Notes under the pieces: model-generated
Seen by the model: only the letters and a program-made list of their open reading frames with translations
Told to the model about the DNA's origin: nothing
The model's database searches: none
In this document: in pieces, positions 45,268-59,920 of the stretch
Layout of the letters: each line of letters opens with the position of its first letter
How positions within the stretch are numbered: the first letter of the stretch is position 1
DNA from: Giardia intestinalis
Lineage: Eukaryota
Direction: 5' to 3' (one strand)
Assembly: GCA_000002435.2 (NCBI GenBank)
Contig: CM018792.1
Length of the DNA stretch: 64,000 nucleotides
Position numbers and translations under genes: made by a program

Positions 45268-46398
45268 TTAGATATTTTGGGCTAGTTCGGTGCACAAAGG
45301 CCCTGTCCACCCTGAAACACATACGCATGCGCTGGCTATGCAGACCCCATGATTCCCACAGACCTCGTTTAGTTCTGCATCAGTTATGCATGCTGTACTA
45401 TAACACATACTGGCGGTATTTATTGGTAAATCCTCGGTACAGGTGCATGCATAAAGCTCAGGCCCGTCTGAGTCGCCTGACACCATGAAACACGACCCAT
45501 AGTTACTACATTCCAGAGGTGTGCTGCTATTCACTGGATAGGAAATGCAAGACTTTGGAATACAGCGGTCTCTGGACGACATGTAGATACTAGCCTCGCT
45601 ACACGCATCACAGTATATGCCTTTATACGGCGCATGGCATGCACAGAAATGAGCAGAGCGACCCGCATCATACGTACAAACTCCATTGCCACTGCATTCT
45701 GTCAGAAGGCTACTCCGCACTTCAATCACGCATTCGGAAGCAACACATCTATTTTCGACTAACTGAAAACCTTTGTCACAGACACATGAATAGGTTGCTA
45801 CGTCATCCACTATCTGTTTGGTACATCGACCGTTAAGACACGGGATTCCGTTGCGAATGCATGTTAGAGGGTAGCACAGCTCTGATTCTAGCAGAGCTGC
45901 TTGGGGGCTACAATGGCAGTGAGGAACAGGTTGCAGTAGGCATCGACCAAGGGAAGAATCAACTGAGCTACAAAGCTGTTCGTTGGATACGCAATTCCTT
46001 GGGTGGCAGCCGTCCTGAGCAAAGAGGGTTCCCTCGTCGCACACAGGCTTTATGTGCTCACAGCTAACACCATAGTAGCGTGGGTCGCATTCGCACAGTC
46101 CCGCTCTGCAGAATCCGTGCCCACTGCATATGTTGGATGGATCCCCTCCAGTAAGGCAGTCCTGAGAGTAGCACACAAAGTCGATGGCAGTGCATCCAGA
46201 GATGCATGAGCAGTCGTATGCACCGTAAGCTGTGAGCACGCATAGCCCAGCATCTCCACACTCTCCCAGCGTCCCATCGGGGTACTCTGTAACGCAGGAC
46301 TCGGGGATACAAGTGGAGTCTACTTTTCTCGTACCAGGTGGACACACTATTGTCGGCAAAGCATTACACAGCAGACCACCCCAAATAAGGATCTGCAT
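45268..46398 (-). CDS. Secreted cysteine-rich EGF-like repeat protein (tenascin-like/high-cysteine protein family)
   Basis: Multiple EGF-like C-x-C modules (CSGHGFCRAGLCECDPRYYGVSCE etc.). No CRGKA tail and no C-terminal TM. The ORF-track start at 46476 is GTG; the first ATG at 46398 gives signal peptide MQILIWGGLLCNALP with an AT-rich upstream. Confidence 0.6.
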   Translation of the reverse strand: MQILIWGGLLCNALPTIVCPPGTRKVDSTCIPESCVTEYPDGTLGECGDAGLCVLTAYGAYDCSCISGCTAIDFVCYSQDCLTGGDPSNICSGHGFCRAGLCECDPRYYGVSCEHIKPVCDEGTLFAQDGCHPRNCVSNEQLCSSVDSSLGRCLLQPVPHCHCSPQAALLESELCYPLTCIRNGIPCLNGRCTKQIVDDVATYSCVCDKGFQLVENRCVASECVIEVRSSLLTECSGNGVCTYDAGRSAHFCACHAPYKGIYCDACSEASIYMSSRDRCIPKSCISYPVNSSTPLECSNYGSCFMVSGDSDGPELYACTCTEDLPINTASMCYSTACITDAELNEVCGNHGVCIASACVCVSGWTGPLCTELAQNI

Positions 46399-46427
46399 AG
46401 CCAAACTGAGCAAATTAAATAATTGAA

Positions 46428-47426
46428 ATGGAGCGGGCAGGGAGCCGAAGAGGGTCAGAAGATAAGCCCCGTGCACCTACGACAGCACGAGGAAAGCGTA
46501 TCATGAAAGAGAGGGAGCCCAAGATTGTTGAAAATAATAAGAATACAATCTTTCTTTCAGGCTCCACTGCCAACAAGGACTGCAACGATCTCTTGAGGGA
46601 TCTCCTCTCTATGCGCGCCCCAATGGGTGTGCGCAGAAGATTCAGAGATAGGGAGGCCAATCCCTTTGTAGACGCCAGTGAGCTCGAGTTTTTGTCGCAG
46701 CGGGTTGATTGCTCCCTGTTCTGCACGGGAACAAGCTCGAAGAAGCGGCCATCCAATATAGTTATTGGTCGGATGTTTGATGGACAGGTGCTGGACATGG
46801 TTGAGCTGGGTATTGACCTCTACCTAGGCTTGACTGACATACACTCACCAAAGCCCCAATTCGGGACGAAGCCGGCCCTGATCTTCGAGGGGGACCTGTG
46901 GAGCAATGACACGATATTCGAGGGGTGTAAGTCTATCCTCATGGACTTCTTCCGGGGCCCCACGATCACGGCCATGGCCCATGCATCTCTGCGCTACTGC
47001 CATGTCTTCTATGCGGTCGGGTCCGAAGACTTGCAGACGCGTCGCATCCTTATGCGCACCTATTACCTGTGCACGAGCCGCGAGCTAGAGGAGAAGGAGA
47101 ATGTCAAGAAGCTCCACCAGGAGAGCTGCGGGGGGATCACTATCATCCCCATGGGACCCAACGTCGACTTCACCCTCCGACGGACGCGGATCCTCGACCG
47201 CTCGGAGATGGCTGCGGCCATGCGCCGGCAGCGCGCCAAGAAGGACCCCTCGAAGGTCCCGGGCGTCAAGAACGCAGAGTACGACGAGCTCGGCCGCGAG
47301 TTCGGGACCGTCTACGTCGACCGCCAGGACCTCGACAAGCTCGGCCTGCGGCGCTTCAAGGGGCTCCGCCGCGACCGGTCCGAGAGCGGGGAGGAAGGCG
47401 ACGGAGAGGAGAGCGCCAGCGAGTAA
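46428..47426 (+). CDS. RPF2: Ribosome production factor 2 (RPF2), Brix-domain protein
   Basis: Brix-domain core CSLFCTGTSSKKRPSNIVIGRMFDGQVLDMVELGI matches the RPF2 consensus (SLF..G.HSKKRP.NL..GR.FD..LLDM.E.G). Basic, acidic C-terminal tail. Divergent from the EGF-like gene with a 29-bp spacer. Confidence 0.7.
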   Translation: MERAGSRRGSEDKPRAPTTARGKRIMKEREPKIVENNKNTIFLSGSTANKDCNDLLRDLLSMRAPMGVRRRFRDREANPFVDASELEFLSQRVDCSLFCTGTSSKKRPSNIVIGRMFDGQVLDMVELGIDLYLGLTDIHSPKPQFGTKPALIFEGDLWSNDTIFEGCKSILMDFFRGPTITAMAHASLRYCHVFYAVGSEDLQTRRILMRTYYLCTSRELEEKENVKKLHQESCGGITIIPMGPNVDFTLRRTRILDRSEMAAAMRRQRAKKDPSKVPGVKNAEYDELGREFGTVYVDRQDLDKLGLRRFKGLRRDRSESGEEGDGEESASE

Positions 47427-51377: not shown

Positions 51378-53189
51378 CTACGCCTTCCCCCTGCAGAGGA
51401 ACCACCAGCAGAGGAAGCCCACGAGGCCCCCCACGACGACGACCACAGCGACGGAGATCCCCGCGATGGCGCCTGTGCTGAGGCCGCTCCTGTTGGCGCC
51501 AGAGGACACACACTTACCACCCTCCAGACTGTACCCATCACTGCACTCCCCACACACATCATCCATCACACAGCTCTTGCAATCACCCACAGAGCATGTC
51601 ACACACCCACTGCCGTCCTTGTTGGGCTTCCTATCACTGTCACAGGAGGTACACACAGCGGGGGTCATGCCAGCATCAGATGGAGCTGTTGGGGCTGTAC
51701 ACTGTGAACAGCCATCCACCCCCACGTATGCCTTCTGACCAGCCAGCTCGACACCAAGGGGGTTCCCACAGGAGAGGACAGACTGCTTGTCCTTGGTGGG
51801 CGAGGGAGGGATGAAGTACCCAGCTGCCGCCTCTGTGCAGACACCATCACCTGCCTTTGTGCACATGGACTTACCCGGCTGAGCTGATATACTATAACAA
51901 CCACCCATGTATAGGAAGTATCCCATAGTACATGATGTGCAGACATTATTGACACATCCTGTATTGCCTTTAGCCTCACTAGCACAGAGACCATCAATAG
52001 GGAACTCACTGTCCTTTCCACAGTAAGAACAGTAGTGAAGCTCCTTCCCTGTGTTGTCGATTACTATTGCATCACAGGCTCCAGATGTCCCACCACAGGC
52101 CGTGGGGTCTTCACACACCTTTGTACACGTGACCCCAGTTGAAGGTTCTCCACTGGGTCTGTAGTTCACCTTGCATTTTGTGCACTTAAATGTGCCACTA
52201 TTTGTGCACTCGGCACACCCCTCGATGCCACCTTTGGTTGTGTCACTACATGAGATGCACTCACCAGAGGAGCTATCCTTCAAGAAGTACCCTTGCTTAC
52301 ATGTCAGGCACTTACTCGGATCTTCCTTCTTGGAGCATGTCGCACAGCCTGGAGCGCACGGATCGCACGCAAAACCCCCACCGTTAGTATTCTCGATGTA
52401 TCCCTCCAGGCATTTTGAACAGGTTGGCGGATTTCCTGCCGTCTTCTCACATATGCTGCACCCGGCAATGCCCTTATCATTTACGCCAGCATCAGGGGAC
52501 GCATCGCCGCAAAGAGCACACGTTTTGTCCTCCTTCATAAATAAGGCCCCGTCAGCGCCCTTGCACCCGTCAAGCGTTTTATCGACGCAGGTCGATGTCC
52601 CGTCGAGGGCCGTCCTGGGGGTCTTATTGGTCCCGCAGTTAGTGCACTTCGGCTTCCCCGTGGTCTTGTCGAAGGAGCATGCCGTGCAATCTGCGTGTAT
52701 CTCACTGCATGCTTTGCAGGTCATTGTTAGCTCGTCTGCATACTGATTGTTCTCACACGTATTAGAGCATGAGTTATCTGACTTCAGATAGGTCCCCGGC
52801 TTGCATGTCTCACAGTTGGTCGCACCGGCCCCGGTACATGTGGCACAGTTCTGATTGCATGGCTTGCAAAGCTTATCGCTCAGGAAGTATCCATCTTGGC
52901 AGGTACTACATGTAGCTGCTCCTGCACTCTGTGGTGCCTGACACTGTGCGCAGTTATCCACTCCCATGACCCCGTCTCTCTGTGTAGTATCAGAGCAGAG
53001 GATGCACTCGTTGCCAGGGGCTACTGGGCTGGCCGGGTTCTGGAATAGATACGCGGCGCCTGCCTTGCAGGTGGTGCACACTCCCTTGTCGGCCGCCGTG
53101 CATATCTCGTTGCCAGGATCTTGTCCTACCTTGTAGCACCCGCCCATGAAGAGGAGTCCCACACCATCACTATCACCCCCACACCACAC
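51378..53189 (-). CDS. Variant-specific surface protein (VSP) family ORF, apparently 5'-truncated (no signal peptide/ATG), possible pseudogene
   Basis: CXXC-rich throughout, two GGCY motifs, and the C-terminal TM plus invariant tail GGLVGFLCWWFLCRGKA. The frame opens with GTG only 41 bp past the upstream VSP stop. The first in-frame ATG (53157, MGGCYKV) has no signal peptide. Confidence 0.55.
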   Translation of the reverse strand: MWCGGDSDGVGLLFMGGCYKVGQDPGNEICTAADKGVCTTCKAGAAYLFQNPASPVAPGNECILCSDTTQRDGVMGVDNCAQCQAPQSAGAATCSTCQDGYFLSDKLCKPCNQNCATCTGAGATNCETCKPGTYLKSDNSCSNTCENNQYADELTMTCKACSEIHADCTACSFDKTTGKPKCTNCGTNKTPRTALDGTSTCVDKTLDGCKGADGALFMKEDKTCALCGDASPDAGVNDKGIAGCSICEKTAGNPPTCSKCLEGYIENTNGGGFACDPCAPGCATCSKKEDPSKCLTCKQGYFLKDSSSGECISCSDTTKGGIEGCAECTNSGTFKCTKCKVNYRPSGEPSTGVTCTKVCEDPTACGGTSGACDAIVIDNTGKELHYCSYCGKDSEFPIDGLCASEAKGNTGCVNNVCTSCTMGYFLYMGGCYSISAQPGKSMCTKAGDGVCTEAAAGYFIPPSPTKDKQSVLSCGNPLGVELAGQKAYVGVDGCSQCTAPTAPSDAGMTPAVCTSCDSDRKPNKDGSGCVTCSVGDCKSCVMDDVCGECSDGYSLEGGKCVSSGANRSGLSTGAIAGISVAVVVVVGGLVGFLCWWFLCRGKA

Positions 53190-53216: not shown

Positions 53217-53223
53217 ATTCACT
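53217..53223 (-). promoter_or_regulatory. Putative polyadenylation signal AGTGAAT (AGTRAAY) of the upstream VSP, lying inside the head of the truncated VSP ORF
   Basis: Reverse complement of attcact, 8-14 nt downstream of the TAG of the 53231.. VSP. Confidence 0.4.
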
Positions 53224-53230
53224 ACCTAAG

Positions 53231-56200
53231 TCACGCCTTCCCTCTACAGATGAACCACCAGCAGAGGAACCCTACGAGGCCCCCCACGACGACGACCACA
53301 GCCACGGAGATCCCCGCGATGGCACCTGTGCTGAGGCCGCTCTTGTTGACGCTTCCGCCGGTGTTGTCGCCGTCTGTTTTGATATAGCAGGTGACAGGAC
53401 CGCCATTGCCACCAGCTGGCGGGGCGCAGCTTACGCAATTAGCGACACCAGTGATTTGGTTGTTATTTCCACTACTAGCTGTACATTTGAAGCATTTATC
53501 ACCGGCACCTTTGTAGTATCCAGGAAGGCATTCAGTGCAGGCATTAGAATCATTGCATTTTGCACAGCCTTCAGAGCACTCCGGACACTTCTCTTGCACA
53601 GGTGCCTGGTTATTTGCAGCACACATAGTGCACTTTCCGTTACTAGCGAGCGTGCAAACCGATTTGCCAGGAAGCTTAGCCACACCATAGCACCCGCCCG
53701 ACATGAGAGTATACTCTCCTGCACATTTGGTGCACTTGCCATCTGCCGCCGTGCATACGCTCGCGTCTCTCCCGGCAGCTGCCACCGTTGTACAAATTCC
53801 GTCGATCGGGGCGTACCCGTCCTTGCACTGAGCACAGTACTTCGCGCCCCCCACGTTAGCCGTGCACTGCCCGTCTGCACAGTTGGTAATGAACGCACCA
53901 GTGCACTCCTTGACGCATGTTCCGGCTGTGCCAGATCCATACAGGAGAGAATACCCGGGATAGCAGGCCGTGCAGGAAGCAGCGTTTGCATCGCCGTTGC
54001 ATTCTGCACACGTAGCATGGCAGGAAGCACAGACACTGACTCCGTTAATATTATCGGCATATGTTCCAGCAGGACAGTTGTCCAAGCATGCATTGCCCGA
54101 AGGAGTAAGCCGCTTGTCTGTACACTCGGAGCACACAACCGTCGATTCTGCTTCTCCAGAGAGCGTTTTGAGGGCACACTTTTTGCAGCCTGTGATGCCG
54201 TGGGTTGCGTCGCTGCATGAGAGGCACATCCCCTTCGAGTCACCGGCCTTCTCTCTAGTGAAGTGCGTCTTATCGGAGGTGCACTCTTCGGCAGTAAGGC
54301 ACGCTCCCGATTGCCCAGCTGCAGACTCTGGCTTTAGATACCGTCCCTCTTTACAGCCAGTGCACTTGTCGGCCTGGTTCGTCATGGCGTTCTCGGTGCA
54401 TCCGTCGCAGCTGGAGTGGCACCCCGGCGTGGCGGCGGGGCATTTCCCGTTCTCTGGTGGTGCGCCGGTACTGCATCTAGCGCAGACATCATTCTGATCG
54501 CATCGTTCACAGTTAGCATCTGAGCAAGAGAAGCACTGCGTACCTGCAGTATTAGGCTTTTGGCCTTCTGCACACTTCTTGCACTCCTTTGCGTCGGAAA
54601 CGCTGTCGTCGGTGTAGTAGCCCGCGCTCCCCTGGCAGTCGACCGCGCTGACGCACGTCCCCGTCGGGTCGCTGGGATTCGTCTTCTTCAGGTAGGGCGC
54701 GGCGCCGTTTGCGTCGCATTTGGTGCACTTATCGGCCGTTCCAGCACACGCCGTGCAAGGGGCGTTGCACTTCTTGCACTCCTTTGCGTCGGAAACGCTG
54801 TCGTCGGTGTAGTAGCCCGCGCTCCCCTGGCAGTCGACCGCGCTGACGCACGTCCCCGTCGGGTCGCTGGGATTCGTCTTCTTCAGGTAGGGCGCGGCGC
54901 CGTTTGCGTCGCATTTGGTGCACTTATCGGCCGTTCCAGCACACGCCGTGCAAGGGGCGTTGCACTTCTTGCACTCCTTTGCGTCGGAAACGCTGTCGTC
55001 GGTGTAGTAGCCCGCGCTCCCCTGGCAGTCGACCGCGCTGACGCACGTCCCCGTCGGGTCGCTGGGATTCGTCTTCTTCAGGTAGGGCGCGGCGCCGTTT
55101 GCGTCGCATTTGGTGCACTTATCGGCCGTTCCAGCACACGCCGTGCAAGGGGCGTTGCACTTCTTGCACTCCTTTGCGTCGGAAACGCTGTCGTCGGTGT
55201 AGTAGCCCGCGCTCCCCTGGCAGTCGACCGCGCTGACGCACGTCCCCGTCGGGTCGCTGGGATTCGTCTTCTTCAGGTAGGGCGCGGCGCCGTTTGCGTC
55301 GCATTTGGTGCACTTATCGGCCGTTCCAGCACACGCCGTGCAAGGGGCGTTGCACTTCTTGCACTCCTTTGCGTCGGAAACGCTGTCGTCGGTGTAGTAG
55401 CCCGCGCTCCCCTGGCAGTCGACCGCGCTGACGCACGTCCCCGTCGGGTCGCTGGGATTCGTCTTCTTCAGGTAGGGCGCGGCGCCGTTTGCGTCGCATT
55501 TGGTGCACTTATCGGCCGTTCCAGCACACGCCGTGCAAGGGGCGTTGCACTTCTTGCACTCCTTTGCGTCGGAAACGCTGTCGTCGGTGTAGTAGCCCGC
55601 GCTCCCCTGGCAGTCGACCGCGCTGACGCACGTCCCCGTCGGGTCGCTGGGATTCGTCTTCTTCAGGTAGGGCGCGGCGCCGTTTGCGTCGCATTTGGTG
55701 CACTTATCGGCCGTTCCAGCACACGCCGTGCAAGGGGCGTTGCACTTCTTGCACTCCTTTGCGTCGGAAACGCTGTCGTCGGTGTAGTAGCCCGCGCTCC
55801 CCTGGCAGTCGACCGCGCTGACGCACGTCCCCGTCGGGTCGCTGGGATTCGTCTTCTTCAGGTAGGGCGCGGCGCCGTTTGCGTCGCATTTGGTGCACTT
55901 ATCGGCCGTTCCAGCACACGCCGTGCAAGGGGCGTTGCACTTCTTGCACTCCTTTGCGTCGGAAACGCTGTCGTCGGTGTAGTAGCCCGCGCTCCCCTGG
56001 CAGTCGACCGCGCTGACGCACGTCCCCGTCGGGTCGCTGGGATTCGTCTTCTTCAGGTAGGGCGCGGCGCCGTTTGCGTCGCATTTGGTGCACTTATCGG
56101 CCGTTCCAGCACACGCCGTGCAAGGGGCGTTGCACTTCTTGCACTCCTTTGCGTCGGAAACGCTGTCGTCGGTGTAGTAGCCCGCGCTCCCCTGGCAGTC

Positions 56201-56842
56201 GACCGCGCTGACGCACGTCCCCGTCGGGTCGCTGGGATTCGTCTTCTTCAGGTAGGGCGCGGCGCCGTTTGCGTCGCATTTGGTGCACTTATCGGCCGTT
56301 CCAGCACACGCCGTGCAAGGGGCGTTGCACTTCTTGCACTCCTTTGCGTCGGAAACGCTGTCGTCGGTGTAGTAGCCCGCGCTCCCCTGGCAGTCGACCG
56401 CGCTGACGCACGTCCCCGTCGGGTCGCTGGGATTCGTCTTCTTCAGGTAGGGCGCGGCGCCGTTTGCGTCGCATTTGGTGCACTTATCGGCCGTTCCAGC
56501 ACACGCCGTGCAAGGGGCGTTGCACTTCTTGCACTCCTTTGCGTCGGAAACGCTGTCGTCGGTGTAGTAGCCCGCGCTCCCCTGGCAGTCGACCGCGCTG
56601 ACGCACGTCCCCGTCGGGTCGCTGGGATTCGTCTTCTTCAGGTAGGGCGTGTTGCCGTTTGCGTCGCATTTGGTGCATTTTTTCCCAGTTGAATCGCATT
56701 CAGCGCAACCATCGATCGATGGACTGCATGCATCAGCCAGTGCGACTGCAAAAATCAAACCAATTCCTACCAACATTGAGGCCAGAAGCTGGCACAGCAC
56801 CGCTCTGGTTTGCATTAAGAGGCGCACGGGATCCTGCTTCAT
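53231..56842 (-). CDS. Variant-specific surface protein (VSP) containing ~11 tandem 65-aa repeats
   Basis: Signal-like N-terminus (..MQTRAVLCQLLASMLVGIGLIFAVALADA), CXXC-rich ectodomain, GGCYG motif, and C-terminal TM plus CRGKA tail. The ORF-track start is TTG; plausible ATG starts are 56890, 56842 (MKQDP) or 56815 (MQTRAV), and the exact start is uncertain. Internal 65-aa repeat unit KCDANGAAPYLKKTNPSDPTGTCVSAVDCQGSAGYYTDDSVSDAKECKKCNAPCTACAGTADKCT. Confidence 0.8.
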   Translation of the reverse strand: MKQDPVRLLMQTRAVLCQLLASMLVGIGLIFAVALADACSPSIDGCAECDSTGKKCTKCDANGNTPYLKKTNPSDPTGTCVSAVDCQGSAGYYTDDSVSDAKECKKCNAPCTACAGTADKCTKCDANGAAPYLKKTNPSDPTGTCVSAVDCQGSAGYYTDDSVSDAKECKKCNAPCTACAGTADKCTKCDANGAAPYLKKTNPSDPTGTCVSAVDCQGSAGYYTDDSVSDAKECKKCNAPCTACAGTADKCTKCDANGAAPYLKKTNPSDPTGTCVSAVDCQGSAGYYTDDSVSDAKECKKCNAPCTACAGTADKCTKCDANGAAPYLKKTNPSDPTGTCVSAVDCQGSAGYYTDDSVSDAKECKKCNAPCTACAGTADKCTKCDANGAAPYLKKTNPSDPTGTCVSAVDCQGSAGYYTDDSVSDAKECKKCNAPCTACAGTADKCTKCDANGAAPYLKKTNPSDPTGTCVSAVDCQGSAGYYTDDSVSDAKECKKCNAPCTACAGTADKCTKCDANGAAPYLKKTNPSDPTGTCVSAVDCQGSAGYYTDDSVSDAKECKKCNAPCTACAGTADKCTKCDANGAAPYLKKTNPSDPTGTCVSAVDCQGSAGYYTDDSVSDAKECKKCNAPCTACAGTADKCTKCDANGAAPYLKKTNPSDPTGTCVSAVDCQGSAGYYTDDSVSDAKECKKCNAPCTACAGTADKCTKCDANGAAPYLKKTNPSDPTGTCVSAVDCQGSAGYYTDDSVSDAKECKKCAEGQKPNTAGTQCFSCSDANCERCDQNDVCARCSTGAPPENGKCPAATPGCHSSCDGCTENAMTNQADKCTGCKEGRYLKPESAAGQSGACLTAEECTSDKTHFTREKAGDSKGMCLSCSDATHGITGCKKCALKTLSGEAESTVVCSECTDKRLTPSGNACLDNCPAGTYADNINGVSVCASCHATCAECNGDANAASCTACYPGYSLLYGSGTAGTCVKECTGAFITNCADGQCTANVGGAKYCAQCKDGYAPIDGICTTVAAAGRDASVCTAADGKCTKCAGEYTLMSGGCYGVAKLPGKSVCTLASNGKCTMCAANNQAPVQEKCPECSEGCAKCNDSNACTECLPGYYKGAGDKCFKCTASSGNNNQITGVANCVSCAPPAGGNGGPVTCYIKTDGDNTGGSVNKSGLSTGAIAGISVAVVVVVGGLVGFLCWWFICRGKA
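54571..56692. repeat. Tandem array of ~11 copies of a 195-bp unit (10 copies identical at nucleotide level, terminal copies slightly divergent)
   Basis: Exact 195-bp periodicity is visible directly. For example, gttgcacttcttgcactcctttgcgtcggaaacgctgtcg recurs at 54741, 54936, 55131 and so on. Ten identical 64-aa minus-strand sub-ORFs at 195-bp steps in the ORF track confirm this. Confidence 0.95.
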
Positions 56843-59800
56843 GTCACGGAATTCAATGGAACACAGCGGCCAACGGAAGCGAGGGCACATCCTCAAGCTA
56901 CACCGGAGACCCGTTAATGCAGCATCCGCCCTCAACAAGCACGACTGAGGAAGCCCAGCGCTGGCTTTCCTTGCTCTGAGAAGGCATAAGTGTATACATA
57001 GATAATGAGTGCATCCATTGCTACATTAACCCAGCTGGCGCTTGTAGCCCTTGACATCCGTAGCCACCGTGTCCTGTAATCTGTCTGATTGCCTGAGTGA
57101 CCATCGTGGGGGACACAGCGATCGTGATGCTCATGGAGTGGCATGGGGCCGGCTCTAGGATCACGCCGCCATCCGGGCAGACGCGCACCACAGAAAGCCT
57201 CTTGTTGCCACCGTCCGAGGCTCACAGGATTGCAGGGCTCAGGGAGCCTCTGTCCCATCAGCGAGACTGGCCTCGCCCGACGCCTCCAGCACTCTGCCAA
57301 TAGCTGGCGGACAAGCGTGCACAATAGCTTTGGACGGAGGGTACAAGGGACAGCAAAACAAGACAGTCAAGTAGGCGTTGACGGTACAAACACTGCCAGC
57401 CCTCAGTCAGAGAGCAGGCATCTGGGAAAGGTGAGGGTTGCTTGTTACTCTACACCTTAACGGCCAGGCTCAACAGTAGTCACTGTTTGAGAGCTCCATT
57501 TGAAAGCACTGTAGATGAGACTCTCTGCCTTCCTGGATGTTGATCCCAAGAATGTGCTGCCTGATTGTTTGTCTCTGCATCGGAGTCGTTGCTAACGGCC
57601 GTCCTGGTGCAGCAAGGGGCCCATACAAGAACCATGTGCCGGGCACTACTCAAGAACAGAACAGATATCGTTGCTACTCATAGGCTTAGACCGATTTTCC
57701 GAAGCGACAGATGTCAAGGGCAAGGACGGGGCCTGTTTCCGAGTCCCTAATTCGAGAGTTTGTGTGAGGACCACAGCACTCTGTTAGACCTTCCTGGAAG
57801 AGGACATCCACACATATCCTTGACTCCAATCCACGTCAAAGAACGCCCAGCGGCTGCCATAGCAGTTGGGCAATGCCATCACTCCTTGCTCAGAGCTACC
57901 CATCGTTGGTGATAAGCAGCTAGCGACAGGGAAAAGCTTCTTTAGACTTCTGATTGCGCCTCAACGTTTTCAAGTCCCCCCTATCGTTTTGCTGAGCCCA
58001 TGTTTCGCTGGTCTGGTGTGCTTGTATCCGTTCCAAAGCATGCTTGAAGTGGCGGCCAAGTGCTAGGCTTCATGTAGTTACCTCAGGCCACAGTGCTCGT
58101 GCGCAATAAGCAGAGTCTCCGGTCCACTGGCCACTGCTCTTGCTGCTCGTAAGCCTGCTCAGTGAGTGGCTATGGCAGGATCCTCCGCAAATGCGTATCT
58201 TTTGATACTTATTTCCATGTGCACAGAGGCAGGTGCACTGTAACTAGTCAAGGCGCCTGCTGCTCAGCCTCCTCGCCGTGGGGGTCTACTGCATACCCCT
58301 TCAGCAGATATTGATTAATGTGCCAGATACAACTACATCCTCAGACTGTCAACTGTGCATGTAGAAGTTTCAGGCCATCCTCTAGCACTGTTCCAATGCC
58401 GCAGAATCTGGATGGGACATCCCGACTACAAGCGCAGCGCAAGGCTAGCGCATTATGTCCGGCACTCTCTTACATTGCAGTTGGCTCCGGCGGCTATTGC
58501 CCTGGACTTACGTTTGGAGATAGGATGATCTGTACCCATCAGTGTGGATGAGCCATTGTCAACCATCGCAGAGACGCTCAGAGTCAACGTAGGCCACACA
58601 TTGATAAGCCGTAATGGATTGCTGGGCAGTCGTAGTACCCGGCAGCGCGCCTTATGGAGCTGTGGCAAGTGAATACGCTGACTTCCGATTCGCCTATCCA
58701 TTAGGGTCCAGACACTTCAAATGGATATGCAGTATATGCTAGCCACGGTTCAGACTGCCAGCTGCATGGATCCTGTGACTGGCCATTAGACATCTTTACT
58801 GTGGTTGTAACACAGTGAAGTGGTACTATATACGCTTGCTGGCGATCATCCGCTATGCACAAATGTACCCGTCGGAGGCCAGTGTATCGGTCACTTTCTG
58901 CTGCGAAGGGAATGCTTAGCCGCTAGCACAGCCGATTCTCTACACCCTACTGATGGCTGTTTTGCGTATATCAGGCTTGGTATCCGCAAGCGAAGTATCC
59001 AGTTAGCAACAGACCAGGGTTATGTTCATCGGAGCAGATGATCAAGCACCAGAGCTGGATTGTCAAGTCCCAGAAGGTGCCACCTCTTCTGGAACGCCCC
59101 TACAAAAACAAGAACCCGACAGCGGAGTTGTGAGGAACTCGAAGTAAGGTCGATCAGGGCACTCTCCTGGGTTCGATGCCATGTTGATTCTAAGGTCTCA
59201 GATGATACAGGAACGCAAAGAATGGCCTCCGCAGCACGCCAAGATTGTGTCATGGAAAGAGCTTCGAAGACTACTGCTCGCTTCATGGACTCTCTTACGA
59301 GTATCCTATGCATCTCTAATAAGGATGAGACGTCCAGCTTAGCATGGATTCCACTACGGTGTCTAAGACAGAATCTGCAAGGGGGTCACTCATCACTATC
59401 TTTCTAATGTATCACTCACTGAAGACCGAGTTCCTATCATAAAGGGCCGAGGAAGAATGACAATAGAATCCATGCAATAGCGCCTGCATAGTTCATTCAG
59501 GGATGAAATTCCAACCTTGGGCCATTTGCCTTTTGACGCTCTCTGTGGATCCCTGAGGAACCTGTGAAGAGGGATGCATTACATAGAAATGATGCTAAGT
59601 AAGCTCGTGGTAACAATTCAATGAAGGCGCCCAAGACAACAAAAAGCGCACCCTCGTCAGCCAGGCAGATCGAGATCACTCCGCAGCCGAAACAACGACT
59701 GTGTGGGGATTCACGTGGGGATTGGAGGCGTGTGCTCGCTAGTACAACATCACGCTCTAACTGGTTGATGCTTCTGAAGCGGGGAAGGAGCACTCTTGGA

Positions 59801-59920
59801 AGACCGTAGTGTCAGAGGTGCAGTACTACAGGCCATAGGTGAGAGTCCCAGCAACACAGCATTTAAAGTATCGATAAGCGATGGAAATATCAGCTTTTAA
59901 AAAGGGAGTATAGATTCAAT

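Follow-up and report, generated by a model that had tools for sequence, protein, structure and literature searches.

The gene and its tandem array

The DNA analysed here is a stretch of 64,000 nucleotides from contig CM018792.1 of the Giardia intestinalis assembly GCA_000002435.2 (hereafter the window; all coordinates are counted from its first letter). Its minus strand carries a VSP (variant-specific surface protein) gene, which we identify below as almost certainly vspA6, also called CRP170, the first Giardia variant surface protein to have been described. The coding sequence occupies 53231..56776 and encodes 1181 amino acids, followed by a TGA stop codon at 53231..53233. Reading along the gene, a 99-bp coding segment (56678..56776, minus strand), running from the ATG at 56776 to the border of the array, is followed by an array of 195-bp tandem repeats and then by a non-repetitive 3′ part of 446 amino acids (53234..54571, minus strand). 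The unique 3′ sequence measures 1,342 bp if 54572 is taken as its first position and the whole stop codon is included.

Tandem Repeats Finder reports a single array at 54573..56677. It has a period of 195 and 10.8 copies, which match at 99% and are free of indels, and it is the only sizeable tandem repeat of the window. Eleven copies lie in register, at a spacing of exactly 195 nucleotides. When self-identity at a distance of 195 was followed base by base, the run was unbroken from 54573 to 56454, so that the segment 54573..56649 is exactly periodic: 2,077 bp, or 10.65 times 195 bp, without a single mismatch, encoding on the minus strand ten perfect 65-amino acid units, each with the octapeptide GAAPYLKK. 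This is far beyond what chance would produce. An earlier note, made from the letters alone, had placed the array at 54571..56692, which is right to within about 15 nucleotides, and had described ten consecutive units as identical at the nucleotide level. This is indeed so in the register that starts at 54573 on the plus strand, where units 1 to 10 are identical and consecutive and the eleventh shows 23 differences. When the units are cut in the register of the coding strand (minus, from 56521 down to 54572), nine of them are identical, and the tenth carries one change, TGC to TGT, which is synonymous and affects its final base (54572). At the protein level, ten perfect units of 65 residues are found, and a degenerate one precedes them towards the N-terminus.

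The two borders of the array differ. The earlier note had diverged units at the flanks, and this is correct for the 5′ (N-terminal) one only. There, the degenerate first unit (IDGCAECDSTGKKCTKCDANGNTPYLKK...KECKKC; 56522..56716, minus strand) agrees with the consensus at 173 of 195 nucleotides, its differences being clustered in its first 67 nucleotides, and its translation is 87% identical to the unit over 62 amino acids (56522..56707). On the 3′ side the array simply stops: the border is abrupt, and the following 195 nucleotides match the unit at 69 positions out of 195.

The repeat unit, NAPCTACAGTADKCTKCDANGAAPYLKKTNPSDPTGTCVSAVDCQGSAGYYTDDSVSDAKECKKC, is 65 residues long and contains 8 cysteines and 3 CXXC motifs. 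The eleven copies of a CXXC-containing module announced for this gene are present, as ten perfect units and a degenerate one. The unit also has an unusual base composition: GC content at third codon positions (GC3) reaches 0.85, versus 0.33 in the 99-bp leader (56678..56776) and 0.58-0.65 in the unique 3′ part (53234..54571), which places it in the top 0.6% of the 1,078 windows of 65 codons taken from the 22 long open reading frames (ORFs) of the window. GC-biased gene conversion within the array may be the source of this high value, or it may simply be the ancestral composition.

The encoded protein has all the appearance of a VSP, as the earlier note had proposed. It matches the Pfam family PF03302 (VSP) with E=3.8e-63 and 214 bits, for a cut-off of 31.4, the best stretch being residues 1044-1181. 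Cysteines make up 12.2% of its residues, and 52 CXXC motifs are present. A hydrophobic segment, MLVGIGLIFAVALA, lies directly at the ATG at position 56776 and is a predicted signal peptide (56735..56776, minus strand); it was read from the translation, and its cleavage site is likewise putative. The non-repetitive 3′ part contributes CXXC motifs, a GGCY motif, a transmembrane segment (AIAGISVAVVVVVGGLVGFLCWWFI) and the cytoplasmic tail CRGKA, these last two being encoded at 53234..53323 (minus strand). The C-terminus of the protein reads ...AIAGISVAVVVVVGGLVGFLCWWFICRGKA, and the reading frame itself ends ...GLVGFLCWWFICRGKA, then TGA. As judged from its sequence, the product is a type-I cysteine-rich variant-specific surface protein. 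Another Pfam proposal for the sense protein, CLIP, was rejected, as no stretch passes on its own and the score results from weak values summed over ten repeats. A comparison by sequence with solved structures gave no match to the protein.

Both ends of the gene carry short motifs. Directly after the stop codon, at 53218..53230 (minus strand), the sequence reads CTTAGGT, then AGTGAA; we take the former to be the conserved VSP 3′ motif, and the latter to be a putative Giardia polyadenylation signal of the AGTRAA type. At the other end, the start codon is embedded in CAATGTT (56772..56778, minus strand), a putative initiator (Inr) element; TAATGTT and CAATGTT are listed as putative Inr of vsp genes (PMC2996952).

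Identity with vspA6/CRP170 and relatives of the gene

The 1181-amino acid protein matches exactly the NCBI records KAE8304195.1 and XP_001707734.2, both entitled 'VSP [Giardia intestinalis]'. Its cluster at 90% identity also includes the previous version of the latter accession, XP_001707734.1 ('Hypothetical protein GL50803_221693 [Giardia lamblia ATCC 50803]', 2259 amino acids), together with AAN52109.1 ('variant-specific surface protein AS6', 894 amino acids) and shorter paralogues. No literature on the record named VSP AS6 was found. Outside the repeat, XP_001707734.1 and AAN52109.1 are identical to the protein of the window, over the 43 N-terminal residues that follow the shared ATG and over the 446 C-terminal residues, with 0 mismatches; the 446-residue part is the same in records P0003 and P0004. 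The published CRP170 sequence is 100% identical to GL50803_221693 (Muller et al. 2020, PMC7332775). Proteomics has shown the GL50803_221693 product to be VSPA6/CRP170, and among the VSPs of WB clone A1 it dominates by a wide margin (PMC7332775).

The layout and location of the gene point the same way. Published vspA6 comprises an initial 99 bp, 23+ copies of a 195-bp tandem repeat and about 1.3 kb (PMC2996952), and the gene of the window, in which 99 bp and 10.8 times 195 bp precede 1,342 bp that close with the conserved 3′ end, agrees with it in everything except copy number. For CRP170, Adam et al. (1988, PMC2188815) describe long tandem repeats, a transcript of 5.4 kb, a locus that rearranges frequently and a cysteine content of 12%, to be compared with the 12.2% of the protein of the window. 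vspA6 is located chromosome-internally (PMC2996952), which agrees with the housekeeping character of the neighbouring ORFs (Brix domain, gamma-tubulin complex component, Tctex-1 and CDP-alcohol phosphatidyltransferase). We conclude with high confidence that the gene is vspA6 (CRP170, vsp67, GL50803_221693) of Giardia lamblia/intestinalis WB; its array, variable in copy number, probably undergoes concerted evolution. The gene identity rests on the exact protein match obtained here, combined with the 100% match to CRP170 reported in PMC7332775. Compared with the gene as known from earlier work (Adam 1988; Yang and Adam 1994; Adam 2010; Muller 2020), the protein flanks, the 65-residue unit, the succession of segments (99 bp, then 195-bp units, then about 1.3 kb) and the GAAPYLKK motif are all shared. 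The differences lie in the number of units, 10.8 here versus 23+, about 22 or 26-27, and in the start, which has been moved to the Inr-embedded ATG.

Length speaks against this identification. The 10.8 copies found here are about half of the published 22-27. The predicted product is of 119 kDa for a coding sequence of 3.5 kb, to be compared with the 170 kDa and the 5.4-kb transcript given for CRP170 in PMC2188815. The allele of the window is therefore different in length from the form first seen expressed in WB-A6. Since alleles are documented to vary in their copy number, the shortfall points to a difference of allele or of assembly, and not to another gene.

The repeat is also the part of the protein known to be recognised by antibodies. 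GAAPYLKK, inside the 65-residue repeat, is the motif bound by the cytotoxic monoclonal antibody 6E7 (PMC7332775, citing Mowatt 1994). The protein of the window contains 10 copies of it, the degenerate unit having GNTPYLKK instead. The repeat module makes up most of the exposed protein, and the array displays the 6E7 epitope ten times. The repeat domain of VspA6 is reported to be immunodominant (PMC2996952); the guess that this would be an immunodominant region, which had been made from the sequence, is thus matched by both papers. VSPA6 is an established surface coat protein subject to antigenic variation, and CRP170/VSPA6 has been reported as a variant present one at a time on the surface, with switching (PMC7332775 and PMC2188815). 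The feature as such is therefore already known: publications from 1988-1994 onwards cover the 195-bp repeat, the fact that it is immunodominant and the variation in its copy number.

The position of the start codon differs between gene models. The current one, XP_001707734.2, uses the ATG at 56776, whereas XP_001707734.1 begins 38 codons upstream; at equal copy number, this earlier start codon would give a protein of 1219 amino acids. Start codons of VSPs were adjusted with SignalP by Xu et al. (2020, PMC7000408). Upstream of the ATG the frame stays open for 54 codons (56777..56938, minus strand), with the translation ...MKQDPVRLLMQTRAVLCQLLAS. The paralogue vspA6-S1 has this stretch as well, in its older gene model (P0005), and a related one is found in a fragment of the ENA database (P0007). 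From these comparisons, the 5′ flank appears conserved across this vsp subfamily, and earlier annotations appear to have begun the gene too far upstream.

Two paralogues, vspA6-S1 (VSP-175, vspG3M) and vspA6-S2, both located outside this window, resemble vspA6 in that they share its N-terminus, the core sequence of its repeat and its C-terminal region. vspA6-S1 (P0002) is 91% identical to the protein of the window outside the array. It is described as having about one 195-bp unit (PMC2996952); one core copy is found in P0002, and two in P0006. The single core of vspA6-S1 shows the unexpanded state, in agreement with PMC2996952. The unit of vspA6-S2 is 201 bp long (PMC2996952). More distant is vspC5 (vsp90), with a 105-bp repeat in >20 copies (PMC2996952). 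Together with the other ~28 tandem-repeat vsp genes of WB, vspC5 shares with vspA6 a short 5′ segment, a homogeneous array, a conserved 3′ end and an allele-variable copy number (PMC2996952). It differs in the sequence and length of its unit, and in that its array reaches the conserved 3′ region without a long unique part in between. The earlier note had called for a search for the 65-residue module in other VSPs: it is found as 27 and 6 cores in XP_001707734.1 and AAN52109, and as 1-2 in P0002 and P0006. A homologue search with two consecutive units returned one protein, P0007, a 221-residue ENA fragment in which a VSP-like N-terminus is joined to unrelated sequence; as this search did not recover the Giardia records themselves, it is uninformative on the distribution of the module.

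Copy number and uniformity of the units

Copy number is what varies between the records. The protein of the window has 11 repeat cores, with flanks and units identical to those of the other two long records. In the literature, vspA6 is given '23+' or about 22 copies (PMC2996952), and the GL50803_221693 ORF 26 repeats of the 65-residue peptide (PMC7332775). Copy number varies between alleles of both vspA6 and vspC5, and assemblies may condense tandem arrays of this kind (PMC2996952). The earlier note had warned both of length variation and of assembly collapse, and its caution was well founded, with 6, 11 and 27 cores now counted across records and the same warning in print.

The reading that we favour, by a modest preference, takes the 11 copies for a genuine allele: vspA6 would occur in several lengths within the tetraploid WB-C6 population, and each assembly or clone would have caught one of them. 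The existence of 6-, 11- and 27-copy records with identical flanks and units is what such a population would leave behind, and both the published variability between vspA6 alleles (PMC2996952) and the frequent rearrangements mentioned for the locus in PMC2188815 go in the same direction. Furthermore, long-read work predicts many structural variants within isolates, enriched at VSPs in WB (PMC7048089). The structural-variant tables of that study do not contain 221693, which counts against a genuine allele, although these tables use an older reference and may list the gene otherwise. The supplementary tables of PMC2996952 were searched for vspA6 and vsp67, and neither was found.

It is also conceivable, if less likely, that the array is a collapsed assembly, and that all real WB-C6 alleles have about 20-27 units. 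The earlier gene model, under the same accession, has 27 cores with identical flanks; published counts stand at 23+ or about 22 copies, with a warning of condensation (PMC2996952); and the 5.4-kb transcript and 170-kDa product, as given in PMC2188815, imply about 20 units. Set against this, the current WB reference is a chromosome-scale assembly, version AACB03, built from PacBio reads (Xu et al. 2020, PMC7000408), and such reads are expected to span an array of 2-5 kb. The window probably belongs to this assembly, as its exact protein match lies on a contig of chromosome size. The count of 27 was obtained from Sanger shotgun data, and is itself only approximate. Shorter variants are moreover on record, in the form of the 6-copy GenBank entry and of the allelic variation described in PMC2996952. 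Because PacBio reads are expected to span the array and the 27-copy figure is approximate, we favour a real, shorter allele over a collapse. Going one step further, the 11- and the 27-copy arrays may both be real, a single WB-C6 clone then having them side by side as alleles in its two diploid nuclei; we put this forward as a tentative possibility.

The uniformity of the units has to be explained together with their variable number. That 2 kb should be free of substitutions, with a diverged copy only at the edge of the array, is best explained as the signature of concerted evolution, since the diverged copy survives at one edge only and the identical unit is found whether the array has 6, 11 or 27 copies. 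Unequal crossover between sister chromatids or between alleles, gene conversion or replication slippage would keep the units uniform, and the same processes would alter the copy number. If the array had been amplified in one very recent burst and had not been homogenised since, this would equally leave 0 substitutions in 2,077 bp just after the event, but we consider it improbable. The perfect unit is common to the 6-, 11- and 27-copy records, and the repeat was already seen in clones of the 1980s (PMC2188815). A unit that stays the same across arrays of differing length, and since the 1980s clones, suggests ongoing unequal exchange and not one event.

The opposite strand, the surroundings of the gene and the reference model

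On the plus strand, the array gives rise to an open frame of 710 amino acids (54560..56692), a stop-free string of codons which the earlier note had taken for a by-product. We agree with this view. In a single unit, 2 of the 6 frames are stop-free, and the antisense frame is open because one stop-free unit of 65 codons is copied about 11 times. That it might be a real gene overlapping vspA6, as a long frame without stops could suggest, can safely be set aside: there is no ATG in its 711 codons, its TTG 'start' being an artefact of the bacterial ORF rule; its product would be a repeat rich in Ala/Arg/Val/Gly that genuinely matches no family; and the frame stops at the borders of the array. The antisense ORF was rejected as a gene for its lack of an ATG. 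The Pfam proposals TMEM70, IN_DBD_C and HCV_NS4b for this frame were discarded as well, as no stretch passes on its own and weak scores are summed over the repeats.

Downstream of vspA6, in a head-to-tail arrangement, lies a VSP-like ORF (51378..53189, minus strand) which starts 41 nucleotides after the vspA6 stop codon and matches the Pfam VSP family with E=1.4e-40. It ends in a transmembrane segment and CRGKA. Its beginning is that of a mid-protein, GGCY-type segment (...FMGGCYKVGQDPG...), and no ATG followed by a signal peptide is present at its 5′ end. Because of this start, it probably represents a pseudo-VSP in a linear array, which fits the pseudo-VSPs described in PMC7000408. Upstream of vspA6, about 3 kb (56940..59900) contain no ORF longer than 130 amino acids, and the two ORFs scanned there have no Pfam match; this agrees with the gene-poor character of VSP neighbourhoods (PMC7000408). 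Further away, an ORF with EGF/teneurin-like cysteine-rich repeats (45268..46476, minus strand) adjoins the Brix-domain ORF (46428..47426, plus strand), their ends overlapping by about 50 nucleotides. The GC3 of the Brix ORF is very high (0.745), and explains the GC peak of the window at 46-48 kb.

As a discovery, the array of vspA6 carries little weight; its practical value is a caveat on repeat number for those who use the reference. The GL50803_221693 model now has 1181 amino acids and 11 cores, where it previously had 2259 amino acids and 27 cores, and the current model is also shorter than the product originally observed. The true copy number in the line used affects proteomic quantification, the predicted mass, the design of primers and probes, and the calling of structural variants at vspA6. 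If both lengths are real, the length of the vspA6 array would be a fast-changing, possibly expression-linked polymorphism, which could be traced read by read.

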